This document shows, piece by piece, positions 8,930 to 28,059 of a DNA stretch of 32,000 nucleotides. The notes beneath the pieces were generated by a model. That model made no database searches, was not told where the DNA came from, and saw nothing but the letters and a program-made list of their open reading frames with translations. This stretch comes from Halogeometricum borinquense DSM 11551. Lineage in GTDB: Archaea > Halobacteriota > Halobacteria > Halobacteriales > Haloferacaceae. How positions within the stretch are numbered: position 1 is the first letter of the stretch; the number at the start of each line of letters is the position of its first letter. The stretch is taken from contig NC_014731.1 in assembly GCF_000172995.2 (NCBI RefSeq), positions 30,001 through 62,000 of the forward strand, in the 5' to 3' direction. The position numbers were made by a program, and so were the translations under genes.

Positions 8930-9163
8930 TTGGGAGCGTGAGTGGCGGCGTCCGCTTGTCTGCTTGAGTCCACTGGCCAGTCAATGCTACTCCCGAACGA
9001 AATTGAGACAGCCCTCTAGTATGTTCAAAGACCCGTTTTATCGTCCCCAACATACATATTCGAGGTTTTACAAGTCGTGTCATGGACCAGAGTAAACGCT
9101 GGTCGGGCTATCGTACCAAACCGTTCTCACTCGAGAGTAACATAAGAATCTCGCCCAGTACGC

Positions 9164-9814: not shown

Positions 9815-9874
9815 AATCACTCTTTTATCATGCTGAATACATTTATTTCTGGCCGCCATACTCCAAAGTAGAGC

Positions 9875-10549: not shown

Positions 10550-10649
10550 CAACCGAATACTTCCCGTTCTGGAGGTCTGAATTACGAAGTGAGGTACAGA
10601 GATCGAACCTGAGGGGGAGCTTGTATTAGAGACGAGAAAGGGAAACGAG

Positions 10650-11426
10650 TCAGAAGTTGCTGTCGATGTAGGAGTGGACGCTGTTCTCAGCGCAGTTGCT
10701 CACCCACTCGACGATCACTTCCGTACTCCCGTTGTTGCTACACGACACACCGTCCCAACTGTACATGATGCTGATCTCATCATCGGGGGAGGCCGACCGA
10801 GTACTCACATCAGCTGGGTGACTGGAATTGTACAGGTGAAGGAGCTCGTGGAACGCGGTCCCGTCCGCCTTGACCTCCGAGAGTTCTGTGGGGAGGTTGT
10901 TGTTGTCCTCGTGGTGGACGTCAGCGAGGCTGGACTTGTTGTCGCTGTCTCCGGCCGTCCCCTCGTATCCGACTCCGTATGTGTTGCTGTCTTGGCCGTA
11001 GTAGTCGATAATCACGATTGCGGACGGACCATCATAGAAGTCGCTCTCGTTGTTCTGGAGCCAGTCGTCTGCATCGATGAGACGGCCAGCGAGAGAGCCG
11101 CTGCTCGGAAGTGCGCTAGAGGGAACTGTCACACCAGCCGGACCCTGCGCCGTGAACCACGACTCGTAGTCACCACTTCCATCCTCGATGTGGCTCCTCC
11201 AGGCGTCAGAAACCCACGAGAGGATGTCACTCATCCGGTTAAAATCCATGTTGTTCCAGAACGGTTCTGTGCCGACGAACTGTGTTCCGATGTTACCCGA
11301 CTGGAAGACTGCGTCCTGAGAGTTGATGTCAACTCCCTGTGGCACGACCGTCGCTTCCTTGACCTTCCCATCGACTCTAGTGACGTGTATCTCCTGCTCC
11401 TGCGACTTCTCCTGCTGCTGTGACAT
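10650..11426 (-). CDS. Metzincin-like zinc metalloprotease, no signal peptide
   Basis: 258 aa. It has HELLHLYNSSH (HExxHxxxxxH spacing) at aa 193-203 and a Met-turn-like SIMYS 18 aa downstream. The N-terminus is hydrophilic. The ATG lies 2 nt after the upstream stop and is preceded by a GGGGTGA SD-like element. Confidence 0.68.
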   Translation of the reverse strand: MSQQQEKSQEQEIHVTRVDGKVKEATVVPQGVDINSQDAVFQSGNIGTQFVGTEPFWNNMDFNRMSDILSWVSDAWRSHIEDGSGDYESWFTAQGPAGVTVPSSALPSSGSLAGRLIDADDWLQNNESDFYDGPSAIVIIDYYGQDSNTYGVGYEGTAGDSDNKSSLADVHHEDNNNLPTELSEVKADGTAFHELLHLYNSSHPADVSTRSASPDDEISIMYSWDGVSCSNNGSTEVIVEWVSNCAENSVHSYIDSNF

Positions 11427-11428
11427 TA

Positions 11429-12211
11429 TTACTCACCCCCTTTGATGATATCAACGTCTTTCGGCACTGCGACGAGATCGGCTTCCTCGATCTTCGAAGC
11501 GTGCTCGTCTGCGAGTGCGAGAATTGATTCAACTCGTGCCTGAGCGTAGTTGTCCCCGGACGCTAGCGGAAGGACTAGGTAGTCATCATGACCGAATACT
11601 GTCACTTCGCCGTGGTTCCGTGTCTGAACTCTGCGTTCGAGAGGAGTAGCACTCTCATCCGTTGAGTCCGCTACAGATTCGGGCCGACCAGAATCAGCCA
11701 CTTCTTGCCCCACGGACACTTCGAGGTCGATACTGTCAGCACTCACTCGAACACCGCTGCCCTCTGCTTGGACGTGGACAGAACGACCGGCCTGGACTTG
11801 ATCGACCACTGCGTACTGAGCGCCTAACTGTCGGTAGTTCGTGTTGACCGGTAGTCCCCGCTCTGAATTCGTGATCTGCACCGACTTGTCGACGGGGTAG
11901 TAGTCACCCCCAGCAGCTACGACAGTATCGTGTTCCCTGAAGAGTTCCACAGGCGCATTCGTCAGCGTCAGAACACCTCGGCTCTGGTCGAGCGCGTACC
12001 CCGCAGTTCCAGTTCGTGAGATTGTCGGGGCATCGGAAGGAGCCTCGTACTCTTCCTTGATTTCGACGAAGCGAACAGTACCTTGTTCGAACTTGTTGGG
12101 ATCGGCGGCAGCCACCCCGGCTCCGCTACCAAGGCCGAGCGTGAGGACGCCGAGTCCAGCAGTGGACTTTAGTACGCCACGCCGTGTCTGAGTAACTTCG
12201 TTGTCTGGCAT
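11429..12211 (-). CDS. Tat-secreted hypothetical protein
   Basis: 260 aa. The twin-arginine signal (TRRGVLKSTAGLGVLTLGLGSGAGVAAA) has no lipobox Cys. The mature part is acidic. Confidence 0.75.
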   Translation of the reverse strand: MPDNEVTQTRRGVLKSTAGLGVLTLGLGSGAGVAAADPNKFEQGTVRFVEIKEEYEAPSDAPTISRTGTAGYALDQSRGVLTLTNAPVELFREHDTVVAAGGDYYPVDKSVQITNSERGLPVNTNYRQLGAQYAVVDQVQAGRSVHVQAEGSGVRVSADSIDLEVSVGQEVADSGRPESVADSTDESATPLERRVQTRNHGEVTVFGHDDYLVLPLASGDNYAQARVESILALADEHASKIEEADLVAVPKDVDIIKGGE

Positions 12212-12637
12212 TGTTTGATCCGCATTGTCGGCTCGGTCCCGCGGCGAATTTGCTCTAACCGTTCGGAAAATAGTGAGCTTAGGGTTGGCTTACGATGTTT
12301 TCAAGAAAATCCGAAACGAAGCCACACCATTCCTCTTGCTCGATTTAAATCCCAGTAAGTTTCAATTTAGATGACTACTTGCTGAACTGGTCGAGGGGAT
12401 CCCCGAATCAGTTGCCACTCTACAAGATTTGTGAACAGGATTTCCAAGACCTATTTTAGATATGATAAAAACGACAGTTCAAAACGCTCTCGCTGGGGAA
12501 CCTACCCCTCAGCACGACCTCAACAGACTATCAGTAACTGAATATTTCAATAGTCCCTATAATCTATATTACAGCTAATTGTAGGTCGGGGATAGAGTTT
12601 AATATGAATTAGTGGTGACATTAGCACACATTGGAAA

Positions 12638-13429
12638 ATGGTTCCACCAAGCCCTAGTCCGCTTGCTGAGACTCTCCAAGCACGATTAGACTGTTTACGG
12701 ACAATAAATGACGACCCTCAAGAGAAGCGAACGCTCACAGACTCATTAGATATCCCGCGTTCCACCCTCGACGACATCGTCCGAGAGCTGGAAGAAAAGG
12801 GCCTTGTTTCATATAGGGATGGGGAATGGCACACTACTCCCTGGGGACAACTGGCGTGTGAGATGCATTATTCTTACTTGAACAGCATCCGGGACCTCAT
12901 TAAAGCAAAACCAGTTCTGGACATCCTCCCGCCAAACCACTCGCTTAGTGAGTCAGTTATAGTTGATGCCGAAGTGAAACTACCTCATCCGAATGTATCG
13001 GGTTGTCTCATGGGAACGATTTTGGAACGTCTTGAGAAGGCTAATGACATCCGTATAGCGACACCTCAAGTCTTGACAGGGTATTACGAGCAGTTTTACC
13101 AGTATTGCTCTAACGATGAAACATCAGTAGAAATTATTCTTGATCAACAGATCAGAGACTGGTATGAATCCCAAGACTCTGAGAAAGTAAATGAATTATC
13201 CAATTGTCCATCCACTTCTGTGCGCTGGAGAGAGATTCCCTTTGAGTTTGGTCTGGTTCTACTTGACGATGAAGAAGTTATCGTCTCCGTCTTCGCCGAA
13301 CATGGCATTGCTGGCCTCATCATGAATGATTCACGAGATGCAATGGCCTGGGCAAGGGACAGATATGATTCAATTAGACAAGATTCTGAGTCAACGAAGA
13401 ACAGTAATAAAATCTCTGGGGTAACGTAG
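12638..13429 (+). CDS. Winged-helix transcriptional regulator (possibly FilR1/DUF1724-like)
   Basis: 263 aa. The N-terminal wHTH is RTLTDSLDIPRSTLDDIVRELEEKGLV, followed by a roughly 180-aa C-terminal domain. The gene and its flanks are AT-rich. Confidence 0.62.
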   Translation: MVPPSPSPLAETLQARLDCLRTINDDPQEKRTLTDSLDIPRSTLDDIVRELEEKGLVSYRDGEWHTTPWGQLACEMHYSYLNSIRDLIKAKPVLDILPPNHSLSESVIVDAEVKLPHPNVSGCLMGTILERLEKANDIRIATPQVLTGYYEQFYQYCSNDETSVEIILDQQIRDWYESQDSEKVNELSNCPSTSVRWREIPFEFGLVLLDDEEVIVSVFAEHGIAGLIMNDSRDAMAWARDRYDSIRQDSESTKNSNKISGVT

Positions 13430-13930
13430 GCTAAAGTCAGATTTAACCGTATTTAGCAAGCTGGGTTTGGCACCATCAATTTTCTACCACCTGTTCTAAA
13501 CGTTTGGTAGACTAGTTAAACGTGGAATTTGCATTCACCGTATTGCACCGCCCGGCGAACGAATAACAGAACCCCACGACTGGCTGATACAACTTACGGC
13601 TCTCCAACTCCGGTCGCTCCCGAGAGGCATTCTGTTGTCGATACAACTGCCGGTGTCGGATTGCGAGTGGGGTGATAGGCTCTACGTCAACATCAAACCG
13701 AACGCTTCCGTGAGCGAGGTTTGCCGGGAGCGGCCGAGCGATTGATCAGCGTCACGATTCCCGGAACGATTGGATTCGGCACTGAACGCCGACAAGACAC
13801 GCGAAGTCATTTCGCGCTACTATCTCGCAAACGCCATCGAATTCCGTTCGGGCGTGAAGTCGTACGGAAATCAAGGATGTCCGTGATGGCGAGATGCGCT
13901 GCATCTCGAACCACTTGACTCCGGGGCGAC

Positions 13931-14611
13931 TCAGGATTTGGACTGGTGATGAGCGGCAGAGGAAGAAGCGCTGTCGGCCCAGAGGTCGTAGCCGACGACA
14001 AGCGCCATAGCACTCGTTGGCGTAATTAACAGCAAGTCAGCAATAGGCGTGAACTGAACGCCGAGCAGCGAGACACCGAGGTACGCACAAGTGAGCAACG
14101 GTGCGCCGGCGAGTGCGATGCCAAGTCGCATATTGTCGGCCCGGAGGTAGCCAGCACCCCACCCGACAAGTCCGGGGAGTGTAAGCACGAGTCCGATAGC
14201 CTGAGCAAGAAGGCCAAGGACGTAACTCATGATTTCGTCCAGGCCCGCTGTAGTGACTAATAGGCTTCCGAACAAGATGATACTCGTCCCAAAGACGGTG
14301 ACGAGGCCGGACACACTCCGTAAGTTCGACAGCGACGTACCGTCACGCTTGAACAGCGCGCCCAAACCGACAATGACCAGAACATTCGCACTGACGGTCA
14401 AAAAGGGCTGAGCTATCCGTTGCATCCAAATTGCACTAAACAGCGGTGGAGCAAACACGTACGAATCACCCGGCTGTGGTTCGGGCCACACCGCAAGCGG
14501 AACTGCGGCAATGAGCAAACAGAGGGCACTAAGACCGAGAAGCGGACCAGCGGTCCGGTATGAAGGACGCCACATCGTATCACTCACCTCCGATAGCCAC
14601 CACGGTGCCAT
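13931..14611 (-). CDS. Polytopic membrane protein, hypothetical
   Basis: 226 aa with about 6 hydrophobic helices. The longest form overlaps the upstream gene by 32 nt. An alternative ATG at 14575 begins 4 nt after the upstream stop. Confidence 0.62.
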   Translation of the reverse strand: MAPWWLSEVSDTMWRPSYRTAGPLLGLSALCLLIAAVPLAVWPEPQPGDSYVFAPPLFSAIWMQRIAQPFLTVSANVLVIVGLGALFKRDGTSLSNLRSVSGLVTVFGTSIILFGSLLVTTAGLDEIMSYVLGLLAQAIGLVLTLPGLVGWGAGYLRADNMRLGIALAGAPLLTCAYLGVSLLGVQFTPIADLLLITPTSAMALVVGYDLWADSASSSAAHHQSKS

Positions 14612-15797
14612 CTGGCGACACGCTCACAATCCCACCATCGAGGACCGCTAGTGATCCGACCTCCGGTTCGGCTGAATACCGCCATACTGCTTCGCCGAAG
14701 CGCGTTGTAAAGGCGGTGAGGCCATCATCCATCTGAGACGTGAATACGGTGTCGTCAGTTGCGGCAGTGACGGCTCCACCCAGACTAGTTTCTGAACACC
14801 ATCGCGGCTCCGGTTGGCCGTCGTCAATACGATCGAACGCGAACGTCGCGCTGGACGCTTCACCGGGTATCTCGATTGCGTACACGCTTTCGGGTGTGAC
14901 GACCGGCATTTCAAACGACCGTCCACGGTCGATACGCCACTGCTCGGTCCCGTCGGCGAGTGACCGGCCGAGTAGTTCGCCAGATTCGGTCACGTATACC
15001 GTCCCGTCGGCAACGACAGGATACCCACTAGTTTCCTCTGGCTGCCGCCAGCGAACTTCGCTAGTCGCAGCATCCAGTGCTACTGTCTGCTCATCGGTAG
15101 CGACGACGGAGCCGTTGGCCACGGCTAGCCTCGTCCCGTTGGCGTCCGCTGTCCACTGTCGCTCTCCAGTGTCGCTCTCAAATCTTGTTATCCCGTCGGC
15201 TGTCGGGACGAATAGAGCATCGCGAGTCACAACAGGGACACCCGTCCCAGTGCTGTCGGTGTTCCGCCACACAACGGTGCCGTCGTCAATTTCCAGTGCG
15301 ACGACACCGTTGGCTGTCGCGAGAAATGCCCGGCCATTCGAGAGCACCGGTGACGCCGGAGCCTCTCCAATACCGACTACTGACGGAACTGTCGCGGGTG
15401 TGAGACTGCGTCGCCACTGTTCGGTCCCGTCAGAAAGCGACAACGAAACGACGCTCTCCGGAGTCGTCAGAACGACAGTTTCGTCGGCAACTACCACTGG
15501 ACCCGTATCGACGTCCGCATCCGTGACAGAAGACGTGGAAACATGTGCTTTCCACTGGATCGATGGGGCTGTCGCCTCCATCTGAACTGGCGCATAGCTT
15601 GTGTTCGCGGCGTCGAACCGCGGTGACGGCCACGAACTGTCAGGGACCGTCTCAAACCCAGAGCCGACATTTGATCCAACGATATGAGATGGGTCTGGCG
15701 GGTCGCCGTCAGGGCACGACGATGAACAGCCAGCGATGCTGGCAGCCGTTCCGGTCGCAAGCATGCCAAGAAATGTTCGTCTCGACTTGGAGGGCAT
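14580..15797 (-). CDS. PQQ-like (BamB-type) beta-propeller repeat lipoprotein
   Basis: About 405 aa. It has a Tat motif (SRRTFL) and lipobox (IAGC), followed by repeated W/G-containing blades (EQWR, VVWR, RQWT, VRWR, EQWR, AVWR). The ATG at 15797 is preferred over the TTG at 15800. Confidence 0.8.
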   Translation of the reverse strand: MPSKSRRTFLGMLATGTAASIAGCSSSCPDGDPPDPSHIVGSNVGSGFETVPDSSWPSPRFDAANTSYAPVQMEATAPSIQWKAHVSTSSVTDADVDTGPVVVADETVVLTTPESVVSLSLSDGTEQWRRSLTPATVPSVVGIGEAPASPVLSNGRAFLATANGVVALEIDDGTVVWRNTDSTGTGVPVVTRDALFVPTADGITRFESDTGERQWTADANGTRLAVANGSVVATDEQTVALDAATSEVRWRQPEETSGYPVVADGTVYVTESGELLGRSLADGTEQWRIDRGRSFEMPVVTPESVYAIEIPGEASSATFAFDRIDDGQPEPRWCSETSLGGAVTAATDDTVFTSQMDDGLTAFTTRFGEAVWRYSAEPEVGSLAVLDGGIVSVSPDGTVVAIGGE

Positions 15798-16467: not shown

Positions 16468-17480
16468 ATGCGTGTCGCAGCTTTCAGCGATTTCACTGGT
16501 CCAAATAGCATTTCGATTATCGATCGGCCAATACCTGAACCCGATAGACATGAGGCTGTAGTCGAAGTCGAGGCGTGTGCGATCAATCGTCACGACCTCT
16601 GGATTCTCGAAGGAGACTCCGCAGTGATAGATACGGACGACCTGCCATTCGTTAGTGGTCTTGACCTTGCAGGAACTGTCCAGAATATCGGTGAAGACTT
16701 ACTGGTGTCGAGTCCGGTGATCGTGTAGTTCTCTGCCCGAACGTAACGTGCGGAACATGTCGCTACTGTCGGGAGGGTCCGGAAAATCTCTGTGAAAATT
16801 ACTCGCTCTATCACGGAGGACTTGCTGAGGCTGCCCGGGTACAGGCTGACCGTCTCATCCCCCTTCCGGATTCCGTGAGTACGGTTGAAGCGGCCGCTCT
16901 TCCGACAGCCTACATGACCGCGTACCATATGCTTCGCCGACTAGAAATCGGACCGACTGACCTCGTGTTTATTCCCGGTGTGACTGGAGGTGTCGGGGTC
17001 GCCGGTGTGCAACTCGTAGCCTCCCTTGGTGCCCACAGCATCGGGACGTCTTCGTCTCAAGTAAAACTCGACCGCCTCAAATCGCTCGGTCTTGACTACG
17101 CAATCAAAAGCACCGACCCAAACGAGATTGAGGATGCGGTCACAAACATCGGCTCGGTTGACGGTGTACTTAACCACCTCGGAGGAGAGTACACCCAGCT
17201 TGGGTTGGATGTATTGCGGCGTGATGGTCGGATGGCGGTCTGCGGGCGGACAGCTGGTAATAAATCTGTAATCAACATCTCAGATCTATTCCTCGGCCAC
17301 AAACGCATCATCGGGAGTACAATGGGAACACAACGTGATTTGGAGACCCTGATAGGACTGGTTGCAGCCGGTTCTCTCACACCTGAGATTGACGAAACCT
17401 ACTCGCTTGAGGATACTGAAGCGGCGTTCGTGGCGATGCAGGACCGCGAGAGCGTCGGAAAGCTCGTTGTCATCCCCTAG
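16468..17480 (+). pseudogene. Zinc-type alcohol dehydrogenase / quinone oxidoreductase (MDR family), frameshifted
   Basis: ORF 16468-16728 (MRVAAF...NIGED) stops prematurely. The sequence continues in another frame from about 16698 (LTGVESGDRVVLCPNVTCGTCRYCREGPENLC...) into ORF 16875-17480. A single frameshift near 16697-16701 restores a roughly 337-aa MDR protein. Confidence 0.75.
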
Positions 17481-17728
17481 TTCGTTCTAAATAGAGATGA
17501 TTTGACCAGTCGTTCACTTGATCTCAGAGTCCACTAAATAAGCGATCCAGTCTGCTATGACTTTTGACTCACCACGTCGTGATAACGGAATCTAATCACG
17601 CTCTTGAGCCTGTGTTTCTTCTTGTTGCTGCTTGAACACAACTCCGGAGAATGATTTTGATGCGTGCCTTCTGTTCGGCTCTGTTGAAATCCTCAGGAAG
17701 TTACATGTTCGCCGTGTAATTCGATGAG

Positions 17729-17812
17729 ATGAAGGCCCTCCCGAAGTCGCAGATTCTCCGGTTTACTGAGAAGGCGATCCATCTGGCACGGCGAGCTGTC
17801 GCTCGATACTGA
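17729..17812 (+). mobile_element. N-terminal 27-codon remnant of a haloarchaeal IS transposase (IS5-family-like)
   Basis: MKALPKSQILRFTEKAIHLARRAVARY* matches the N-terminus of a haloarchaeal transposase family that continues RYSSKFSKRRYT..., as I remember it. Here the ORF terminates and the homology ends. Confidence 0.4.
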
Positions 17813-17853
17813 GACTATCCAAGGGGTGGTGCGAAAGATCACTTCTCAGTATT

Positions 17854-18030
17854 TTACCTAAGATTGAAAAGAACGAACCCAGAAGCGAGACCGCCTGCAA
17901 CAGCCGGAATAATCGATTCAAGTAGACCTCCGTCAAAGAGAACTAATTCGAAAACACTCGATATTACCACCCAAACCACCACATTAGTCGTTATGAATAC
18001 CCATTGGTCTTCTAAGTCAAATGAGGCCAT
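17854..18030 (-). CDS. Possible small two-helix membrane protein (58 aa)
   Basis: This ORF is below the track cutoff and was found by hand: MASFDLEDQWVFITTNVVVWVVISSVFELVLFDGGLLESIIPAVAGGLASGFVLFNLR. It has two hydrophobic helices, is AT-rich, and has no clear promoter. Confidence 0.25.
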   Translation of the reverse strand: MASFDLEDQWVFITTNVVVWVVISSVFELVLFDGGLLESIIPAVAGGLASGFVLFNLR

Positions 18031-18639
18031 ATCTGCGAATTATGTTCCAGTCTCTAATCCGTACTGGTGTCTTCGCACTCTTCACCAACCGGCTGTTTCA
18101 GTCGATAATGTGTTTGAAGAATAGGATTTCAACAAAGCTAAAAATCCATAATTCAAGAGCACTGAACGTAATGAGAGCTATTCCCAGATTAGTCAGAGGA
18201 CGCTATGTGAAGTACATCCCTTTGAAAAGACAGATAATTTACAATTACGATGGTAATATTGTCACGCTGTAAATTTCCAATTCGCCGAAATGATTCCGGT
18301 CTAACTGGAATCAGTGAACGGATTAGACTCGCCTTTGGTGATAAAAAACAACAGTGTGTTTCCCATCGTGTTCAGGTCTTCGTGTCCGATAGGATATACA
18401 AGATGAAAACCATCCTCCACAGTCTGGGACCAACTGTGATCTAGTAGGCGACTCTACGCTTCGCCCCTCTTCGGTAACCTATCTCAGTTATCCCCTATCA
18501 TATCATATGAATTTCTATCCTGTTGGAAAGTTGCCCCAATAGCCCGAATCAAGGCCGAGAATATTATTTCACTACTTGACAATCAGAAAACATAAATATT
18601 TTTATGTAATCAGACACACATAACAGATGGTGTTTCACA

Positions 18640-18945
18640 ATGCCAACTAACTTAGAAACGGTCCAGTTCACGTTCTCAGACGTCACGGGTCACGAGTACA
18701 CTGACTCGGAAAGTCTCGGCGCTAGTGGACAGGTTATAGCGGCAGAGACGGCTATCAAGAGCTTCGAGATCGGATTTGAGGGCAACGACCGCGAACTCAT
18801 GTCCGAGAAGATTCAGACCGATGCCGACGTGCACGGCGACACAATCAGTGTGAATCTTGAAGCACTCTTCCGCGACGCCAGCGGTCATATCGACGACCCG
18901 TACGGTGGCAATGTCGAGGTACTCGTTATTACCGAAAACGAGTAA
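18640..18945 (+). CDS. Small acidic hypothetical protein (101 aa)
   Basis: ATG start and acidic composition. An AT-rich promoter with the inverted repeat ACATAAA-N4-TTTATGT (18590-18607) lies about 35-50 nt upstream. A T8 run lies 27 nt after the stop. Confidence 0.55.
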   Translation: MPTNLETVQFTFSDVTGHEYTDSESLGASGQVIAAETAIKSFEIGFEGNDRELMSEKIQTDADVHGDTISVNLEALFRDASGHIDDPYGGNVEVLVITENE

Positions 18946-18971
18946 CTCGACTGTCTGACTGATTGGTTCGA

Positions 18972-18979
18972 TTTTTTTT
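18972..18979 (+). terminator. Oligo-T (T8) archaeal-type terminator
   Basis: TTTTTTTT lies downstream of the 18945 stop. Archaeal RNAP terminates at oligo-T tracts. Confidence 0.4.
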
Positions 18980-19017
18980 GCGTTAGCGTATCACAGTTAT
19001 TATCGGCGGCGTGTACG

Positions 19018-19971
19018 TTACTCGCCTGCAAGCTCTTCGGCAGTGGTTGTGAGATCCACTAGCTCATCGACCGCCGGGATTTCTGCTTCAGCATCGGTGA
19101 GAACCTCGATACGCTGCGCAATCTTATCGCGGGCATATTCGACGAGCGGAGCCGAATCCGCTCGGGAGTCCCGATTTGCTTGAAGCGAGTCAGTGACGAG
19201 TGGAAGAAGGGATTGGAGCGTTTCTCGAACAACTGCGTCGTCAACACCGTCCTCGTGAATGAGGGTCCGGACGCTGTGCATTCCGAAACCGACGTGGCGG
19301 CCTTCGTCAGCGCGAATATAACTGATCCCTTCGAGCAGTCCCGGAAGGTGTGGCATTGCATCGGTCGTGTTATGAATCTCAGAGCGACTCTCGCTATACC
19401 GGGCGGTGAAGCCATAGTACGCCGTTTGGGCGAGGACACTTTCAATCACGAGGTGGTAGTGGCAGAATGCTTTCGCACGATTCTCGGGCGTGTCATCGGT
19501 CACTAATCGCTTCATCGCGGTTTCCGTCCGGTCGAACAGTTCGATGTACTGGTCCGAGAAGTACCGCTCGTCAGTCGGACTTGTGGGCTCGTAGCCTCGC
19601 TCCTCGGTGACTGGACGAATGACTTCTCGCCAGTACCGATCGAAAAACTGCGTGTGTTTCGCTTCCTCATAGATCTGGCTGGCGACGAACATTTGGGCGT
19701 CAATGTCGTCAAGAACCAACGCGAGCGGCGCAAGATCTTCTGTAACGGCCTCTTCACCGGCACCGAAGAGCGCAATTTGGGAGCGGAGCAAGTCAAACTG
19801 TTGCTCATCGAGGTCGTCGGTGGTGAGTAGGTTCGTCCGATCTTCCTTAAGGAGTGTTTGAGGGATGTCTTCGGATGGATCCCAATGCCGATACACGGCA
19901 TTCTTGAAGTAACCGTGTGCGAACGAGTCTGGATTAAGCCGATCCTCTCGGCTATCGTCTGCGAGCTTCAT
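19018..19971 (-). CDS. Ribonucleotide reductase R2-like ferritin-fold di-metal protein (R2c/R2lox-like)
   Basis: 317 aa. It has two ExxH motifs (EEAKH at aa 102-106, DEGRH at aa 222-226) plus likely ligand Glu residues at about aa 73-74 and 177. Phe110 occupies the position 4 residues after His106, where class Ia R2 has the radical Tyr. No R1 gene is in the window. Confidence 0.78.
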   Translation of the reverse strand: MKLADDSREDRLNPDSFAHGYFKNAVYRHWDPSEDIPQTLLKEDRTNLLTTDDLDEQQFDLLRSQIALFGAGEEAVTEDLAPLALVLDDIDAQMFVASQIYEEAKHTQFFDRYWREVIRPVTEERGYEPTSPTDERYFSDQYIELFDRTETAMKRLVTDDTPENRAKAFCHYHLVIESVLAQTAYYGFTARYSESRSEIHNTTDAMPHLPGLLEGISYIRADEGRHVGFGMHSVRTLIHEDGVDDAVVRETLQSLLPLVTDSLQANRDSRADSAPLVEYARDKIAQRIEVLTDAEAEIPAVDELVDLTTTAEELAGE

Positions 19972-20388: not shown

Positions 20389-21189
20389 TCAGTCTTCCCA
20401 GCGGGATAGCATGACTAGCGCGGCCACGAGTGCAACGAGCGCTGTGCCAACGGTGAATCCGGGAACTTCCGTACTGGCGGTACCAGCATCGGCTGCTTCG
20501 TTGACTTTGTTAGTCGTTGGAGCGCCTACAGCTGTCTCCTCGCTCGCGTCGTCGGTCCGAGTCGGTTCGACGCCCATCTCCGTCATGGTGTTCTCGTCGG
20601 GGCCGGTTTCGCTCGCCGTCGCTGTCACCGCGCCGGCGTTGTCGCTTTCGTCCGCACCACCGGCGGCGTCGATCACGTCGAGTGTCCCCGGGTCAGTTCT
20701 CGGATTGACACTGGATCCGTTATTGTCGTCGAGTCGGTCGATGGTGACACGCAGGCTCGTTTCGCCAGCCTGCTGGCCACGGAGCGTAACCGACCCGAGC
20801 GTCACGTTTGACGCGCCGGGTTCGACGGTCTTGTTCAGGTCGGCCGCCTTCAGTCGGACGGCCGTACCGTCGGCAATACCCTCGACCTCGCCGAGACCGA
20901 ATTCGTCGGCCACCTCCGCATCGACGACTGTCGCGGCGTCGCCGTTCGTCATCTCGACTGTGAGGGCAAATCCGGCGACGCCGTCGGGAGCTTCGGTCAG
21001 CGTGAGGTCAACCGTCGTCTCCTCACCTTCCTCGACACTCGTCCCACCAGCGACGACCGTCGGATCGCTGGCAGCCAGCGCCGGGGCAGCCAATCCCGTG
21101 ACGACGACCGAGAGTGCGAGTCCGGCCGCGAGCCAGCGCGTTGCCGTTCGCACCGTCCCGACATCAGGCATCGTCGCGTCAGATCTCAT
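20389..21189 (-). CDS. Cell-surface cohesin-domain protein with a PGF-CTERM (archaeosortase A) anchor
   Basis: It has a signal-like N-terminus (RWLAAGLALSVVVTGLAAPALAA). Its cohesin-like domain (LTLTEAPDGVAGFALTVEM...) is paralogous to the one in the upstream gene. A Thr/Asp/Glu-rich linker precedes the C-terminal PGFTVGTALVALVAALVMLSRWED. The start is ambiguous: ATG at 21189 (overlaps the upstream stop), ATG at 21171, or GTG at 21273. Confidence 0.8.
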   Translation of the reverse strand: MRSDATMPDVGTVRTATRWLAAGLALSVVVTGLAAPALAASDPTVVAGGTSVEEGEETTVDLTLTEAPDGVAGFALTVEMTNGDAATVVDAEVADEFGLGEVEGIADGTAVRLKAADLNKTVEPGASNVTLGSVTLRGQQAGETSLRVTIDRLDDNNGSSVNPRTDPGTLDVIDAAGGADESDNAGAVTATASETGPDENTMTEMGVEPTRTDDASEETAVGAPTTNKVNEAADAGTASTEVPGFTVGTALVALVAALVMLSRWED

Positions 21190-22906
21190 CGAACAGCGTG
21201 TTGATGTCGTCGAAGTCAACGCGACCGTTGCCGTTGAAGTCGAACGAGTCGGCGTTGGACTGAACGGCGTCACTGTCTCGGTGTTCGAAGAACACCACTA
21301 CATCTTCGAAGTCGGCCTCGCCGTTGCCGTTCATATCCTCGTACAGTCCGTCTCCGTCGGGGTCGGTCGGAAGGTCGTTGTCGCCGATACGGGCGATGTC
21401 GGCGACGGTCACGACGCCGGTGTCGGTCGCGGCGTCGATTGCCGAGCCGTCGGCATCGGAGTCGAGAGCATTCACGGAGAGTGTGACGCCGGTCTCACCC
21501 GCGCTCTGGAGACCGACAGACAGGGTCGCAAGCGATACGTTGGCAGCCCCGCCCTCGACCGCGTCTTCGATGTCCGAGGCTGCCAGCGTCACCGACGAGT
21601 CATCATCAGCAACGGACACCTCAGTCACCCCGCTCGGGAACGCATCTGCCACGGTCGCACTCTCGATAGATGCCACGGCCGCATCGTCAACTGAGACAGT
21701 TACGTCGAAACCGGCGAGACCGTCAGGTGCATCGGATAGTGACAGTTCCGCCGGAACAGTACCGCCGACACCACCGTTCTCAGGGAACGACACCGAGAGG
21801 GTCGGTGATTCGCCGTCGTCACCATCGGAGCCCCCAGAGCCGTCCGTGTTCGGTTCGTAGCTGTCGAACAGACTGAACGCGTCGTCGAAGTTCGTCGTGA
21901 CCGGAATCGACGCGTTCCCGTTCACGTTCGAACTGCCGTCAGTGACCGCGCTTCCGAGTCGAAGGTCGGTGCCGAGTTCGGACGCGAGGCGCTCTAGGTT
22001 TGCCGTCGTGCTGCCCGGCGCGGCGGCGCTCCCGAGTAACACGACTGCACCGTCGTTGGCAGCGAAGTCCGAAAGCGCCGCCACCTCGTCGGCAGTGAAT
22101 TCCGAGACGGGCGTGGTGACGATGATCGCCCGCGCGTCGTCGAGACGCTCGCTGTACGCGGTGTTGACCTGTTCGAGGGTGAGGCCGACACCTTCGAGAT
22201 AGCGCTGGTAGTACGCTGCGTCCTCGCTGGACAGTGCGTAGCCAGCGCCGAATTGGCCGTGTCCGCCGTCGATGAGTACATCTCCGTTCTTATCGGAGAG
22301 AGAGTCGATCAGGTTCGAGAGGAACGTGAAGTTACCGTAACCGCTCGTGTCGGCAGCGAATCCTTCGTCGGCCTCGTAGCTCTCATCGATAAACGGCGAG
22401 CCGACGAGCGCGACGCCAGCGTCGGCATCAACCCCGACGAGCGGAGTGCCGTCCTCGCTCGCAACCGGTACGCGGCCGTCGAGCGAGGCGGAACCGGTCA
22501 CTGCGGCAGCATCGGGGAAGTACAATTCCTGAACCGCACTGTTTCGGATTTCGGCAGCCGTCGAGATATCGCTCTCGTTCCAGAGACCGCGCCCTTCGGT
22601 GCGGGCTGTATGTTCTAAGTCCCAGAACTCGTCGTGACGGGAGAGCGTGGAACCATATACCCGCGCGAGTCCGTCCTCGATCATCTTCGCGTTGTACGTC
22701 GTATCGCGGTTCCCGTCGCCAGTCGCATCGTAGTCAGCGTACGCGAGCACGCGGTCGAACGGATCCCTGACACCCTCGTTCTCATCGAAGTAGATCTCGA
22801 TGGTTTTACCGGAGAGTTCCTCCTCGGCGACCGATGTCGCCTGATTCGCCCAGTTGACGAGGTAGGGGTACTGTACGTCGCTACTGCTGTTGTCCTCACC
22901 GCCACC

Positions 22907-23575
22907 GAAGTACGGGAACGAACTGTCGAACCGCGAGGTGCTGAACTCGAAGTTGCCCTCGCTGTCCACGACCTGCGCGTCGTTGAAGCGGAACGGAGCC
23001 CCCGCCGCGTCGAGGATGTCGTTCGACGCAGTGGTATTATCATAATCCTCGTAATCGGACTTGCCCATCGCGTACACCGCTCCGCCGTCCTCGACGAACG
23101 TCGTGAGCGCGCTGAGTTCGGTGTCGGAGGGTTGCTGAGGCTGGCTGCAGACTACGAGATCGATCCCGGAGAGGTCGGCATCCAGCGAGTCAACGGTGGA
23201 CACGGTGTAGCCGGCACTCTCGGCGTTCGATACGAAGTTCGAGAAGCTGTCGAATCCGTCGAACTGCCCGTTGTCGTACCAGGCGACGGTCGCGTCGCCA
23301 CCGGTCAGGTCGTCCCACACGTTCAGGACGAAATTCGAGGCGTCCGAGTCGAGACTGGCGTCGTTGACGAGAGCGGAACTGACCGCCGCAACGTTGCCGT
23401 CGATTGCCGCGAGCGGAATAGCCGAATCGGGATAGGTAACAGCGTCGCCGTTGCCGTCCTCGTCGTTCACTGCCGAGCCTTCAGGTGCAAGCACCGCGGT
23501 CGTTTCCCCGTCGGTGTACGGTGATCCGTCAGCGGCCAAGAGGGTGGTCGCCGAGTAGAAGTTGAGCGTTGAAAC
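22907..23575 (-). repeat. Intragenic module copy 2, inserted inside the SNase domain
   Basis: VSTLNFYSATTLLAAD...GNGDAVTYPDSAIPLAAIDGNVAAVSSALVNDAS...FVLNVWDD...FRFNDAQVVD...FPYF. A third, more diverged copy lies at about 21866-22459. Confidence 0.7.
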
Positions 23576-23812
23576 CGACCGCACCCCGTCAGTCGTTTCC
23601 TCGTAGGAGAGTCCCTCCCATTCCTCGGGTCGCTCGGCATCCGAAGCACTGGCCGACTCCGGCGTGTCGATGCCGAGGACGCGGATCGACTCTTCCGTGC
23701 CGTCGTCGAACTCCACGTCGAACGTGTCACCGTCGGCAACGGAGATCACATCGACGGTGTACCGCTTGCTCGGATCGAGTTCCGACCCGGAGCTGATCCC
23801 GTCCCGGTCTTC

Positions 23813-24500
23813 GAAGTAGGGGAACTCATCGTTGAACTGGCTCGTCGTCGGGACGTAGTTGACGCCAGTGTTGTTCGTCGCGTCAGTGACCTGCGCGTCG
23901 TTGAAGCGGAAGGAGAGCCCGAGTTCCGAGGCGATCGTGTTGAGGTTGTCAGTCTCGTCGAAGTCGTCGAAGTCGGACTGGTGGTGAAGAAAGACAGCAC
24001 CACCCTCGGCGACGAACGACGAGAGCGCGCTGAGTTCGGCATCAGAGAACGCGTCAGACGGTGACGTGATGACGACTGCACTCGCCCCGCTGAGGTCGGC
24101 CGTCAAGTCACTCGTCGCCTGCACGTCGTACCCGTTCGATTCGGCGTACGTCTCGAACGCACTGAATCGAGCGAGGTTGTAGTACTGACCGTGTCCCTCG
24201 TCCCAGAGTACTGTCCCACCGTCAGCCAAGTCGTCCCAAACGTTCAGGATGAACTCCTCATTGCCGGTCGAAAAGTCTTGGTCGTCGTCGACCAGCATCG
24301 TCCCCGAAGCCGGCGACAGAGCCGTCAACACCGACTAGAGGGATCGACGTTTGGGGATAGCTGACCGCGTCGCCGTTTTCGTCGGCGTCGGTTATCGACG
24401 CCGAGTCCTCCGCCCACACTGCGATCACCGAGTTATCGGTGAGTTGCTCTTGGGAGGCGTCGAGCAACGAGTTCGTCGAGTCGAAAGCCAAGTCCGAGAT
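23813..24500 (-). repeat. Intragenic module copy 1 (about 65-aa leader segment + DUF4350-like domain)
   Basis: ISDLAFDSTNSLLDAS...ENGDAVSYPQTSIPLVGVDGSVAGFG / TMLVDDD...FILNVWDD...FRFNDAQVTD...FPYF aligns along its length with copy 2. Confidence 0.7.
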
Positions 24501-25126
24501 GGTAGTTGCGTTCTGAGTCGTCGTGTCGGATGCCGCACTCGCAGTTCCGCTGATTGAAGCGGCAGCGAGCGTTGCAAGGAAGGTTCGTCGCCTCACGTCT
24601 TTGACCCTCGGCCGTAAAATAATTAAATTAACTAATTAATGTAAATAGACATATAGTGTCAATCATTAATACGGACCGCAACGTTCGACCGAAGAAAGTA
24701 TCTTAAAAACTCGACTGCTCTCAGTAGTACATACCAGACGGTTGAACAGGGTGAAGTAAAAGTATAGGAATAAATTCGAGTCAGCCGAAAACTGAGAATA
24801 CGGACCAGTGTCATCGCCCAGTAGTCAGCGAACGCGCAGCGGTAGTCCGGTGAGAAACCATAGTACTCCTCACAGCAGGAACACCACAGTACGAGAGACT
24901 AAGCGCTGATTCTTGGCGTGCCTGACTGCAGTCCCTAGTTGTGGATCACAACACCGAAAGAGAGAACGAATACACACTATCTATTCGGGACCAAAGACAA
25001 CAAAATACGGGCAGCCTGACGATTTCGATTGCCTGTGTGAACGAGAACAGTGCCGGAAAATCGTCCCGAAGCATTTCCCAGATAAGTGTCAAAGGAAATA
25101 TTTGTGTGGAGGCACTTTTCATCTAT

Positions 25127-25730: not shown

Positions 25731-26609
25731 CTACCGACGCCAGTAATCGAGGACAGCACAGGACTCGTCCAGTTCGAAGACGAGCGGCCGATCACCAAGA
25801 TCGATAGTAAGCCGGACCGCTGGTGAGTCACTGGTACAGCAGACGACGTCAGCCACTCTCGCTAGATCGTGCGGTCCGATCTGGGCGTCTGCCAGTCCGA
25901 ATCCGTGGTCTGCGTACAGAGTTTCGACCGCGGGGTGTCCGAGAACTGTATGAGCGACCGGGATCGGATACGACAACCAGCAGGTATCGCACGCGGCAGT
26001 TGCATACGGAACATCGTCGAGAAGGTACGAATCCGGAACAGATTCCCGCGGAAACGAGAGACCAGCAGTACTCCAGCAATGTGGACAGACTCCGTCCTGA
26101 AGGAGTCGCACGTCGCAGGCGTGTTTACGAAGCGAGAGATCGAGAACGTCTTCTATCGTTCGGCCAGTTACCGCCCGGGGTGGAACCGGATAGGCGATTG
26201 CAGCGCCGTGGTCCGGACAGCCGACGTACAGCAGGTGGTCCTGATAGGTTATGACGAGTGACTGCTCGCAGTGTGGGCACTGGTACTCAGTCTGCCGTCG
26301 ATCGACAGTTACTGTCTCACCATCATACGTCCCCGCTCGAATCGCGGACACGATTTCGAGGGCAGCAACTCGCGGCCGGTATTGTCCATCGATCTTACGA
26401 ACGAGTTCGTCTTGCAACGCATCCAGGTGATAGCTAAACCGACTGGTGTCTGCAACGCCGACTCGTTCGCGCAACTGCGAAAACGAAAGCCACCCAGACG
26501 ACCACGCCTCGTCGTACTGGTCCGCAAGCGCGAAGAGGATTTGAACACGTGTCTCATCTGTCAACGCCGCATACGTGTCGTCGTACGAACTGCCACCTAA
26601 ATCCGCCAT
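25731..26609 (-). CDS. Winged-helix (ArsR-like) regulator with a Cys-rich zinc-ribbon-like C-terminal domain
   Basis: The ATG at 26609 (MADLGGSSYDD...) is preferred over the upstream GTG/TTG. The HTH region is TRVQILFALAD...FSQLRERVGVADTSRFSYHLDAL. The C-terminal domain carries CPHC...C and CPHC...CDTC cysteine clusters. Confidence 0.7.
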   Translation of the reverse strand: MADLGGSSYDDTYAALTDETRVQILFALADQYDEAWSSGWLSFSQLRERVGVADTSRFSYHLDALQDELVRKIDGQYRPRVAALEIVSAIRAGTYDGETVTVDRRQTEYQCPHCEQSLVITYQDHLLYVGCPDHGAAIAYPVPPRAVTGRTIEDVLDLSLRKHACDVRLLQDGVCPHCWSTAGLSFPRESVPDSYLLDDVPYATAACDTCWLSYPIPVAHTVLGHPAVETLYADHGFGLADAQIGPHDLARVADVVCCTSDSPAVRLTIDLGDRPLVFELDESCAVLDYWRR

Positions 26610-26719
26610 ACTCCAGATTTCTGATTCTGCATGGTACGTGTTCCGATTTGATATGTCAATTACACAACTTAATAGCCATCCAGATAACACTTACAACCGG
26701 ATAGAGAGAGTCCACGAGT

Positions 26720-27478
26720 ATGTCAGACTCAGTTTCGACACCCACCGCAGACGTTGATAACGGTGCGACTGATCGAACTGGAACTGTCCGCACTGCGACT
26801 GTGCTCGCTGGGATCATTGTCGCTGCGCTAGTGGCAACCGTCGCAGCGACGCTGGCAACAGCCGTTATCGGAAGTAGGTTAGGGGAGACAGCTACCTTCG
26901 TTGTAGGAATCGTCGGAATCGAACTCAGTTTCATCGTCGTCGGAATAACGTATCTCCGATTTCGGTCGTCGTTTCGCCTACCCGTTCGGCCGCCAACTCG
27001 ACAAGAACTCCCATACCTAATCGGTGGCCTGCTGGCAAGTCTCGTCACAGCCTTCCTCTCGCTTGCGATCACTGATGCCATTATCCCAGCTTTCGAGCTC
27101 TCACCCGGCTACACTGAGTATAGTCGGCTCGGCGATCTGACCGGAATAGGGTTCGCGTTCGGTGCGATTCTGTCGTTTACACTAATTGGTCCCACCGAAG
27201 AGTTCTTCTTCCGCGGCGTAATGCAAGGCCGACTCCGCGAAGCGTTCAGCCCCGTGAGCGCCGTCGGAATCGCTGGGGCGGCGTTCGCTCTCTTTCACGT
27301 CTACCCGGTCCTATTGCTCTCTCCACCTCTTGCCACAATCGCCCACATGGCGGCGTACTACACGCTCATGGGGATGATATTCGGTTGGGTGTACTATCGA
27401 ACAGACAATCTCGTCGTTCCTGCCCTCGTTCATGGGATATTCAACGCTGTGCTGTTCACATCTGCACTGTGGATCTGA
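26720..27478 (+). CDS. CPBP family intramembrane glutamic endopeptidase (CAAX protease / Abi-like)
   Basis: 252 aa. It has the motifs EEFFFRG (EExxxR), FALFH and HGIFN on hydrophobic helices. Confidence 0.85.
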   Translation: MSDSVSTPTADVDNGATDRTGTVRTATVLAGIIVAALVATVAATLATAVIGSRLGETATFVVGIVGIELSFIVVGITYLRFRSSFRLPVRPPTRQELPYLIGGLLASLVTAFLSLAITDAIIPAFELSPGYTEYSRLGDLTGIGFAFGAILSFTLIGPTEEFFFRGVMQGRLREAFSPVSAVGIAGAAFALFHVYPVLLLSPPLATIAHMAAYYTLMGMIFGWVYYRTDNLVVPALVHGIFNAVLFTSALWI

Positions 27479-28059
27479 GTCGCTGAGACAGCGGTGGCCG
27501 CTTTCCCGCAGATTCGTACCGACGATATCAAAATAGCAACGGCGTAATTCGCAGTGTAGACCGCCGAAGTTGCTTTTAATTAATACTGGAGCTTCGTTGA
27601 GTAGAGTATATTCGCCAGGATCACAGATAGAATTGTCATTTTAAGAACTAATATTTTGCTTATATACACGTAATCAGCCATATAGAATTAGTGGGAATAC
27701 CGATATACAGTATTTAAAACAAATATCCATATTCTGTCTTCAGATTTGACTAGATTCATTCTAGTATCCATAGAAGAACAGATTCCAGATTCAAAATGAA
27801 CGATATATCAGCCAGTAAGACTAATCTAACAATGGACGAAAGTAGAGCTATCATCTCGCACCCAGACACAGTCTCGTTCCGTTCCTCCGTCTAACCATCC
27901 CGTTGATCCACCTTAGATTGAGCGAGACGGCCGGTAGCGATGAAACGCTCGACAATAAATCACGGATCAGCTCAAGAGAATCTGATAGATCAAGACGGCT
28001 CAGGGATGTCTGTGAGCGAATATCGCCGAGAGAGGAAGGTGTCGCAGTGCGAGTCGCAC

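Follow-up and report, generated by a model that had tools for sequence, protein, structure and literature searches.

The window that we analysed, a stretch of 32,000 nucleotides from Halogeometricum borinquense DSM 11551, carries on its minus strand an open reading frame (ORF) of 1050 codons (21179-24331) in which one continuous frame holds both pieces of a staphylococcal nuclease (SNase) domain. The gene, its signal peptide and the downstream gene, which overlaps the nuclease gene by 11 nt, are laid out as follows; residue numbers refer to the 1050-codon ORF unless stated otherwise.

24531..24596, minus strand: Tat-type signal peptide with GTG start (MRRRTFLATLAAASISGTASAA; RRxFL motif), in the ORF 24258..24596
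24302..24305, minus strand: frameshift site, GGGG on the gene strand versus GGG in two other Halogeometricum borinquense assemblies
23786..24530, minus strand: module 1 (the "pre" module), composed of a beta-rich leader and an alpha/beta core of the DUF4350/GIFT type
23609..23785, minus strand: SNase N half, aa 183-241, comprising beta1-beta3 and the initial portion of the omega-loop (ERPEEWEGL)
22871..23608, minus strand: nested module 2, aa 242-487 (246 aa), a full-length module of leader and DUF4350/GIFT-type domain
22556..22870, minus strand: SNase C half, aa 488-592, comprising alpha1, beta4-beta5 and alpha2-alpha3
21839..22555, minus strand: module 3 (the "post" module), DUF4350/GIFT-type, more divergent
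21377..21805, minus strand: beta-rich domain, aa 843-985, cohesin-like by motif only
21182..21346, minus strand: dockerin-like tail at the C terminus, in which two calcium-loop motifs (DxNGNGxxDxxD) occur
20392..21189, minus strand: downstream gene of 266 aa, with a signal peptide, a beta-rich domain, a Thr/Pro-rich linker and a PGF-CTERM anchor

The frameshift was located by DNA alignment with the two other assemblies (L001 and L002). It divides the gene into the ORFs 24258-24596 and 21179-24331, and the coordinates of module 1 extend across it. Removing one G gives a protein of 1138 aa, 98% identical to P0001, an intact ortholog of the same length whose start is identical to the signal peptide of the window; the closest relative is from Halogeometricum borinquense. 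In this reconstructed protein, the module HMM matched module 1 at aa 31-270. Either the gene was inactivated very recently or a homopolymer was misread in sequencing, and because of the frameshift the copy in the window may be non-functional. ORFs on the plus strand of the region (22634-23524 and others) were treated as antisense shadows of a high-GC gene, since the minus-strand protein has full-length homologs with E = 0. Compared to typical members of the SNase family, the domain found here sits between further DUF4350/GIFT modules, in a protein of more than 1100 aa.

A sequence-only reading of this DNA had proposed that the SNase domain is interrupted by a nested insertion. This was confirmed, as both pieces align collinearly with the unbroken SNase domains of close relatives. 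The Pfam SNase profile (PF00565) matched aa 491-586 only, covering profile positions 19-107 of 107 (38.0 bits, cut-off 21), while in the uninterrupted relative P0077 positions 2-107 were matched. NCBIfam nuclease models recognized aa 183-229 and, separately, aa 488-586. Similarly, phmmer against the PDB paired aa ~194-227 with SNase residues 13-46 and aa ~507-589 with residues 69-146, and by comparison of the family profile with the PDB, the C half begins at SNase residue 52-53. The domain is thus non-contiguous, with 246 aa lying between the equivalents of residues ~46 and ~52. Chance similarity of the N piece was ruled out by the NCBIfam matches, the alignment with uninterrupted homologs and the conservation of the catalytic residues. 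An assembly chimera was ruled out as well, dozens of independent assemblies showing the same architecture.

To map the insertion point, we aligned the protein with 46 uninterrupted haloarchaeal homologs. These close relatives read GIDTPE-x9-ERxxEWEG[IL]-(1-10 aa)-YLxxW, whereas the window reads ...EWEGL-[246 aa]-YPYLVNW. The insert therefore lies in the omega-loop, 16 residues past the TPE motif and after the conserved ERxxEWEG element, at the C-terminal end of the loop and just ahead of helix alpha1. The break had been predicted to fall in the omega-loop, which held, and just after TPE, which did not. The coordinates proposed initially (N elements at 23654-23764, C half at 22574-22870, insert at 22871-23614) were found to be right to within 1-2 codons; we place the N half at 23609-23785, the C half at 22556-22870 and the insert at 22871-23608. 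The omega-loop of the Staphylococcus aureus nuclease is about 10 residues shorter than that of the uninterrupted haloarchaeal relatives, which bear the ERxxEWEG element.

In SNase, Asp21, Asp40 and Thr41 are the Ca2+ ligands, and Arg35, Glu43 and Arg87 are catalytic. The retention of these residues, claimed from the sequence at the outset, was borne out, and their equivalents are distributed over both halves. The N half carries D200 (D21; nt 23732-23734), R217 (R35), D222 (D40), T223 (T41) and E225 (E43; nt 23657-23659), and the C half carries R527 (R87; nt 22751-22753) and Y559 (Y115). We compared 120 homologs, all haloarchaeal, of which 46 are uninterrupted, 58 have one insert and 16 have two. 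The equivalents of D21, R35, D40, E43, R87 and Y115 were invariant, and the T41 position held T or S everywhere except for an Ala in a single uninterrupted protein. Loss of catalytic residues upon proper alignment was thus not seen in any of the 74 split homologs. The K84 and Y85 equivalents were not conserved, but this variation is not linked to the split, since uninterrupted forms vary equally.

The insert had been described as a full copy of the leader plus DUF4350-like module, and the comparison of the modules agrees with this. Modules 1 and 2 share 44% identity (E 3e-40), and the leader part of module 2 matches the leader specified by the upstream ORF at 42% identity (E 1e-16). Module 3 is 35% identical to module 1 and 22% to module 2. 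Testing the module families (DUF4350/GIFT-type; PF14258, PF09822 and PF23355), we obtained scores above the Pfam gathering cut-offs for DUF4350 (55.0 versus 30.4), ABC_transp_aux (59.8 versus 34.7) and IFT52_GIFT (44.6 versus 27.2), with three, three and two stretches matched, respectively; module 1 and the nested module also exceeded the cut-offs for these families. Within proteins, the median identity of the nested module was 56% to the N-terminal module and 33% to the C-terminal one, and 86 of 90 nested modules had the nested module of another protein as their nearest neighbour. By sequence, the nested and N-terminal modules of a protein are paralogs, and the nested modules of different proteins are orthologs. 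We know of no member of the DUF4350, ABC_transp_aux (GldG) or IFT52 GIFT families nested in a nuclease, and among the papers searched, none of those mentioning "DUF4350" was about nucleases. Sequence searches of the PDB (phmmer with the segment, hmmsearch with the family profile) found SNase variants alone and no entry for the DUF4350 module.

Modelled alone with AlphaFold2 (AF2), the insert was compact, with alternating strand-helix units (pLDDT 90.1, pTM 0.89). Foldseek matched this model to the N-terminal region of IMPa (TMq 0.45-0.50, E 3e-4) and to the N-terminal GIFT domain of IFT52 (prob 0.99), and further to cyanophycinase, the catalase C-terminal domain, GH42 beta-galactosidase, flavodoxin and class-I-amidotransferase-like domains. 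The predicted fold is thus a flavodoxin-like/class-I-glutamine-amidotransferase-like alpha/beta fold. The N-terminal domain of IMPa bears a ligand-binding exosite (PMC10550946), and the match of this Pseudomonas aeruginosa region to the nested module is only moderate.

Orthologs with and without the insert, which the sequence-only reading had suggested looking for, were both found, together with forms carrying two inserts. Of the 120 best database homologs, 74 have the same split, far more than chance would produce. With M for a module and n and c for the SNase halves, the architectures among these 120 were MnMcM (58), MncM (37) and MnMMcM (16). Across 230 domain pairs, the N-to-C gap was strictly trimodal (0-20, 240-300 and 480-560 aa). 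A library clustered at 50% identity contributed 10 further split representatives. Nine have a strongly acidic composition (pI 4.0-4.3), and RR signals were present in 8/8 with a complete N terminus; the tenth, P0165, is a fragment truncated at its N terminus and has a pI of 5.4. In a poorly resolved neighbour-joining tree of the spliced SNase domain (~150 aa), built to see whether the insert had been gained once, split and uninterrupted forms were interleaved. Because the number of such domains at this position varies among relatives from zero to two, we regard this as a real and tidy, if not revolutionary, natural case of domain-in-domain insertion.

We also modelled the segment spanning aa 178-604, which holds both SNase halves and the insert (mean pLDDT 85.9, pTM 0.60). 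The strands of the N half (segment residues 14-23, 26-30 and 36-41) had a pLDDT of ~96 and the C half of ~95, and linkers of low confidence flank the insert (segment residues 56-75 and 301-310). A pTM of 0.60 for this two-domain segment leaves the placement of the insert relative to the active site undefined. Foldseek against the PDB, a local and sequential comparison, aligned the C half only to SNase (prob 1.0, rmsd ~1.8 A, 95 columns), which says nothing on the packing of the N half against it. From the model, we infer that the two halves would close into one domain, the five-stranded OB-fold barrel with three helices. Tudor-SN structures, as well as PDB entries of Delta+PHS, loop-insertion and loop-transfer variants of SNase, were among the Foldseek matches to the two-domain model.

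Concerning localization, inspection by eye of MRRRTFLATLAAASISGTASA found an S/T-R-R-x-F-L motif, a hydrophobic stretch and an Ala-x-Ala site, which suggests that the nuclease is exported by the Tat pathway. At the other end of the protein, the two-loop DxNGNG motif of the tail is conserved in many homologs, some homologs have a Pfam Dockerin_1 domain, and the tail gave weak PDB matches to the CelS/Endoglucanase SS dockerins (E 0.05) and to EF-hand proteins. Pfam searches at E<=1 of aa 828-1050 and of the downstream protein gave no match to any family, Dockerin_1 and Cohesin included, nor did NCBIfam find a cohesin or dockerin match in the C-terminal 223 aa. The terms dockerin and cohesin are therefore used here descriptively, on the basis of the loop motif and the weak PDB matches.

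The beta-rich domain of the nuclease is 41% identical over 118 aa (E 4e-20) to the downstream protein, which matched TIGR04126 (PGF_CTERM) at residues 239-264 of 266 with 31.8 bits (cut-off 24.5). PGF-CTERM proteins are substrates of the archaeosortase ArtA. The downstream gene is also called in L001 and L002, and homologous downstream genes are present at Halostella and Haloarchaeobius loci and at L006. Its product is the probable surface receptor of the nuclease. Taken together, the Tat signal, the dockerin-like tail and the PGF-CTERM-anchored partner suggest a surface-tethered extracellular nuclease.

Overall, we consider it likely that the locus encodes the catalytic core of a large, Tat-exported and anchored multi-module haloarchaeal nuclease in which a single SNase domain is split by a nested module. 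In this protein, beta1-beta3 bring the Ca2+ ligands and the Arg35 and Glu43 equivalents, after which the chain enters the omega-loop with its family-specific ERxxEWEG element. At the end of this loop, a duplicate of the N-terminal module is spliced in, and the chain then returns to the remainder of the SNase domain, where the Arg87 equivalent lies. On either side of the insert, a flexible linker of about a dozen residues may let it loop out while the halves pack into the OB-fold, so that Ca2+-dependent nuclease activity is most likely kept and an accessory, binding-type domain would be held right beside the active-site cleft. The dockerin-like tail would probably tether the enzyme to the surface by binding the related beta-domain of its co-transcribed, PGF-CTERM-anchored neighbour. 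There, by analogy with Hvo_1477, the nuclease may degrade extracellular nucleic acids for nutrient scavenging or turnover of the biofilm matrix.

Several other explanations were weighed against this one. The most serious, which we still hold to be the less probable, is that the locus of the window is a pseudogene, its signal peptide cut off from the body and its nested architecture a relic of intact relatives. The extra G relative to two other assemblies is in keeping with this, and the upstream frame indeed stops at 24258, after 112 codons. However, nothing else disrupts the gene over 3.4 kb, the frame stays open for the other 1050 codons, and the codon differences from the intact ortholog (L001) are mostly silent (85 synonymous versus 20 non-synonymous). 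An error in homopolymer length would account for the extra G equally well and, whichever the cause, the nested architecture is conserved and intact elsewhere.

The two other alternatives concern the split domain itself. After the insertion, the SNase domain might have become vestigial, a non-cleaving scaffold or nucleic-acid-binding hub like the SN5 domain of Tudor-SN, the sole structurally characterised split SN domain, which is catalytically dead (PMC2441809). The variation of the K84 and Y85 equivalents across the family would fit such a loss, but it is equal in uninterrupted forms, and all 74 split proteins keep D21, D40, R35, E43 and R87, with T or S at position 41, as do the 46 uninterrupted ones; we therefore find a vestigial domain improbable. 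Even less credible to us is an origin of the pieces as remnants of two SNase domains in a tandem M-SNase-M-SNase ancestor, the first having lost its C half and the second its N half. The ends of the nested module do match the boundaries of module 1 exactly, as a tandem duplication of module plus SNase would give, and the family includes proteins with repeated modules and n and c pieces ("ncncnc" and "nccM" architectures). Yet no M-n-c-M-n-c or M-n-M-n-c intermediate was found among 258 proteins, and the gap distribution lacks intermediate sizes. Furthermore, the functional outcome would be unchanged, because one N half still complements one C half.

Returning to a single SNase domain interrupted by a nested module, a bolder extension, which we put forward with considerable doubt, is that the omega-loop serves as a "port" for one or two GIFT-type binding modules placed at the mouth of the active site in roles related to catalysis. 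The modules could clamp or select the substrate, for example extracellular DNA that is embedded in the matrix or associated with proteins or glycans. Alternatively, they could form a ligand- or Ca2+-responsive switch gating Glu43 and the loop. Were this so, the protein would represent a natural allosteric domain-insertion enzyme, and its relatives with zero, one or two modules would form a natural series in which the tolerance of SNase to insertions can be studied without further engineering.

SNase is among the most studied models of protein folding and stability, and its omega-loop, which has repeatedly been deleted and re-engineered, is known to tolerate deletion. Engineered variants (the Delta+PHS deletion of 44-49, insertion and transfer mutants) indicate that loop 44-52 is dispensable and tolerates change. 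While these laboratory-made variants involve a few residues, the haloarchaeal proteins naturally carry one or two whole domains. With S. aureus Nuc, Bacillus subtilis YokF/YncB and Hvo_1477, the protein shares the Ca2+-binding and catalytic residues as well as the fold of the C half (Foldseek prob 1.0). Typical thermonucleases are extracellular and several are surface attached, like the location proposed here, but their omega-loop is not interrupted by a folded domain of 246 aa, or of ~500 aa as in some of the relatives. Hvo_1477 of Haloferax volcanii is a surface thermonuclease required for growth on extracellular DNA (PMC3929857).

The closest precedent for the architecture is SN5 of Tudor-SN (SND1/p100), in which the chain likewise exits the SN fold, forms a separate globular domain and re-enters (the "extended Tudor domain"). 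We found no other nested SNase-fold domain described in the literature. The analogy is one of architecture only. Tudor-SN is eukaryotic and intracellular, with a ~90-aa Tudor barrel as its insert, and the putative active site of SN5 is mostly hydrophobic, the catalytic residues having been lost (PMC2441809). In our protein, the insert is of the DUF4350/GIFT type and the catalytic set is intact, which sets it apart from a Tudor domain within an SN domain devoid of catalytic residues. The position seems to differ as well: judging from the residue numbers (Leu669 versus Ala772/Gln777/Val778/Gln780; PMC2441809), the Tudor insert appears to lie in the region of beta2-beta3, after the D21 equivalent and before that of R35, unlike the insert found here, which follows E43 in the omega-loop.

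These findings indicate that, in the course of evolution, the SNase omega-loop has received one or two entire folded domains while every catalytic residue was kept. Since close relatives lack the insert, the family offers a natural 0/1/2 series in which to study whether a small OB-fold endures large insertions beside its active site or makes use of them. They also point to an annotation problem, as domain callers give only a truncated SNase match. Split proteins are named "DUF4350 domain-containing", "ABC transporter" or "thermonuclease family" in databases. To our knowledge, Hvo_1477, a simple thermonuclease, has so far been the only one implicated in the processing of extracellular DNA by haloarchaea. 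The nuclease and its PGF-CTERM-anchored partner form a conserved haloarchaeal gene pair, which may help these organisms process the abundant extracellular DNA of hypersaline habitats.

The staphylococcal nuclease (SNase) domain really lies in two pieces within one reading frame, since the Pfam, NCBIfam, phmmer/PDB and family-profile matches fall in this way on a 1050-codon ORF (amino acid i begins at nt 24331-3(i-1)). The Pfam SNase match was truncated, with aa 491-586 covering profile positions 19-107 of 107, and the NCBIfam nuclease models gave two separate matches, at aa 183-229 and aa 488-586. By phmmer against the PDB, aa ~194-227 corresponded to residues 13-46 of staphylococcal nuclease and aa ~507-589 to residues 69-146, and the C-terminal match of the family profile began at SNase residue 52-53. 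Pfam also placed three stretches of the DUF4350/ABC_transp_aux/IFT52-GIFT type in this ORF. The coordinates that the sequence-only reading had given for the SNase pieces and the insert were correct within a codon or two. The features of the gene are as follows.

24258..24596, minus strand: 112-codon upstream ORF, encoding a twin-arginine signal (MRRRTFLATLAAASISGTASA) and the module 1 leader
21179..24331, minus strand: large ORF of 1050 codons, holding both SNase pieces
22871-23608, minus strand: nested module 2 (aa 242-487, 246 aa)
~23430-23460, minus strand: D-x-DGNGDAV-x-YP motif in the nested-module leader (aa 291-301), with an equivalent stretch in module 1
aa 843-985, minus strand: beta-rich domain after module 3
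C-terminal tail, minus strand: two DxNGNG loops, with weak likeness to dockerins and EF-hands (E 0.05)

Removing one G from the GGGG at 24302-24305 (gene strand) fuses the two ORFs into a protein of 1138 aa, which is 98% identical to a 1138-aa protein of Halogeometricum borinquense. Two other H. borinquense assemblies have GGG at this site, compared to GGGG in the window. Outside the frameshift, 109 of 3417 nt differed between the window gene and its counterpart. Because these remaining differences comprise 85 synonymous and only 20 non-synonymous codon changes, the frameshift is either recent or a homopolymer sequencing error.

We mapped the break against the 46 uninterrupted SNase domains found among the 120 best database homologs. 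These read GIDTPE-x9-ERxxEWEG[IL]-(1-10 aa)-YLxxW, and the window sequence reads GIDTPESASASDAERPEEWEGL-[246 aa]-YPYLVNW. This comparison puts the insert 16 residues past the Glu43 equivalent, after ERxxEWEG and directly ahead of helix alpha1. By this alignment, the insert site is the C-terminal end of the omega-loop, already lengthened in this family by the conserved ERxxEWEG. The break had been placed just after the TPE motif in the omega-loop; the loop was right, and the exact position needed to be shifted slightly. The ERxxEWEG motif (window 23609-23656, aa 226-241) is invariant in the family, split or not, and absent from the S. aureus nuclease; in split homologs the insertion always comes after it. 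It is well known that the SNase omega-loop has been deleted or swapped in laboratory variants, and PDB entries of such variants were among our Foldseek matches.

Orthologs with and without the insert, which had been proposed as a check, both exist (46 uninterrupted, 58 with a single and 16 with a double insert). With M for a DUF4350/GIFT-type module and n and c for the SNase halves, the domain orders were the following.

M-n-M-c-M: 58 of 120 homologs
M-n-c-M: 37 of 120 homologs
M-n-M-M-c-M: 16 of 120 homologs
Other arrangements: 9 of 120 homologs

We aligned the spliced SNase domains of these uninterrupted, single-insert and double-insert proteins with the S. aureus nuclease. The equivalents of D21, R35, D40, E43, R87 and Y115 were invariant in all three groups. 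The T41 equivalent was mostly T; five split proteins have S here, and one uninterrupted protein has A. The corresponding window residues are D200, R217, D222, T223, E225, R527 and Y559. This 120-protein alignment excludes a loss of catalytic residues. Their invariance in split and uninterrupted forms argues strongly that a single active site is still built from both SNase halves.

For aa 178-604, an AlphaFold2 (AF2) run with a 57-sequence alignment gave a mean pLDDT of 85.9 and a pTM of 0.60, a model that does not define how the insert is oriented toward the active site. The strands of the N half scored 96, 96 and 95 and the C half ~95. Such high pLDDT in the N half, a 30-residue beta-meander, is as expected if it were packed into the barrel. 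The sole weak stretches (segment residues 56-75 and 301-310) were the two linkers flanking the insert, and ~12 flexible residues per side would permit closure for any geometry of the insert termini. In the sequential local alignment of Foldseek, the C half alone matched many SNase structures (95 columns, rmsd ~1.8 A, prob 1.0). Because this alignment spans only the C half, we infer from the model that the SNase halves would close into one fold.

The insert is, as the sequence-only reading had it, a full copy of the leader and DUF4350-like module. It shares 44% identity with the protein's own N-terminal module (E 3e-40) and 22% with the third module, and its beta-rich leader is 42% identical to the product of the upstream ORF (E 1e-16). 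Modeled alone by AF2 (56 homologs in the alignment), it forms a single compact domain (pLDDT 90.1, pTM 0.89). Its best fold matches in the PDB were the metallopeptidase IMPa of P. aeruginosa, in its N-terminal region (TMq 0.45-0.50, E 3e-4), and class-I-amidotransferase/flavodoxin-like domains, including the IFT52 GIFT domain. The IMPa N-terminal domain has a ligand-binding exosite (PMC10550946), which is only a hint that modules of the DUF4350/GIFT type may bind something. The D-x-DGNGDAV-x-YP motif is conserved in the leaders of modules 1 and 2 and in the nested modules of homologs, and resembles a calcium-binding loop; it could matter to a Ca2+-dependent enzyme.

Loop length was strictly trimodal among 230 n/c pairs (0-20 aa, n=147; about 240-300 aa, n=67; 480-560 aa, n=16), with no intermediate lengths. 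Within a protein, nested modules are closest to the N-terminal module, with a median identity of 56%, compared to 33% for the C-terminal module. Since the nearest neighbor of a nested module was the nested module of another protein in 86 of 90 cases, these modules are old and inherited, not repeatedly re-created. A tree of the small SNase domain, too weak for counting events, interleaved split and uninterrupted forms. Searched exhaustively, a 50%-identity library yielded 10 more split representatives, some of them of the order SP-n-M-c-M, lacking the N-terminal module. They are haloarchaeal in character, since nine are very acidic (pI 4.0-4.3) and all eight with a complete N terminus carry RR signal peptides; the tenth (P0165, pI 5.4) is an N-terminally truncated fragment. 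The variants P0123 and P0131 have the order signal-n-M-c-M, with one module nested inside the SNase domain and none ahead of it, so the nested position is independent of an N-terminal copy.

The gene is flanked by the following.

20392-21189, minus strand: downstream gene (266 aa), overlapping the nuclease gene end by 11 nt
25731-26690, minus strand: DUF7347/DUF7351 protein, divergent upstream neighbor, with weak sub-threshold HTH and zinc-ribbon matches
19018-19971, minus strand: R2-like ligand-binding-oxidase/ribonucleotide-reductase-small-chain-like ORF, below family cut-offs, conserved downstream in two other H. borinquense assemblies (L001, L002)

The downstream product has a signal peptide, a beta-rich domain, a Thr/Pro-rich linker and a PGF-CTERM anchor. 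Its beta-rich domain is 41% identical to nuclease aa ~878-995 (E 4e-20), and the whole protein is probably a surface receptor for the dockerin-like nuclease tail. Pfam gave no match for this tail with its DxNGNG loops. Partner-gene homologs follow the nuclease in Halostella (L003, 7449-8258), Haloarchaeobius (L004, 7431-8186) and a metagenome contig (L006, 11412-12188). On the latter, two split-SNase paralogs in tandem flank the anchor gene (8001-15432): P0004 (1135 aa), which has a dockerin-like tail, and P0072 (1027 aa), with a membrane anchor of its own at the C terminus. Among homologs P0001-P0120, the C termini are interchangeable (dockerin-like double loop, RG-rich basic tails, PGF-like membrane anchors, lamin-tail and PPC domains) and are different means of localizing one nuclease core. 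The signal, the PGF-CTERM partner genes and these varied C termini all point to an enzyme located on the cell surface or outside the cell.

In Halostella, Haloarchaeobius, Halorubellus and L006, the nuclease locus has an acyl-CoA dehydrogenase upstream and an aldehyde dehydrogenase downstream (4/4), and most of the compared loci L003-L006 have a RIO1 kinase and a copper-binding protein downstream. This same syntenic locus holds single-insert genes (Halostella, Haloarchaeobius) and a double-insert gene (Halorubellus). The Halogeometricum context (window and L001) differs, with an ABC transporter, an Rce1-like protein and the DUF7347/DUF7351 regulator. Scanning GTDB species representatives and PLSDB for exact patterns turned up no copy. 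Together with the differing context, this suggests that the gene was relocated or belongs to strain-variable accessory DNA. The DUF7347/DUF7351 protein is a possible local regulator, as it also adjoins the nuclease gene in L001. In base composition the window looks mosaic, with a GC content of 0.44-0.50 at 8001-10000, 12001-14000, 17001-19000 and 27001-28000 and of 0.55-0.63 elsewhere.

Overall, the nested SNase insertion noticed from the sequence is confirmed as an observation and supported in its interpretation, with a refined break position. Across many haloarchaeal lineages, one SNase domain has its omega-loop split by a duplicated accessory module and fully keeps its catalytic set. The halves would fold together into an active Ca2+-dependent nuclease, exported by Tat in the folded state and held at the surface by its tail and the PGF-CTERM partner. 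By analogy with Hvo_1477, a simple surface thermonuclease that a haloarchaeon needs to grow on DNA (PMC3929857), it may break down extracellular nucleic acid. The nested module may be a passive passenger, a binder of substrate or matrix beside the cleft, or a loop regulator, a direct role being possible because it adjoins Glu43.

Our literature search found no description of a haloarchaeal nested nuclease; it did find mentions of DUF4350, none of them on nucleases, and database labels of the homologs are inconsistent. In the eukaryotic Tudor-SN (SND1/p100), a Tudor domain interrupts the SN5 domain, whose catalytic residues have been lost (PMC2441809). Judging by the residue numbers in that paper, this insertion apparently lies earlier in the fold than the haloarchaeal one. 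The haloarchaeal case is a domain insertion in the SNase fold and not a new principle. Even so, nature has run a neat experiment here on a textbook protein, and the case points to a conserved system of surface nucleases in haloarchaea.
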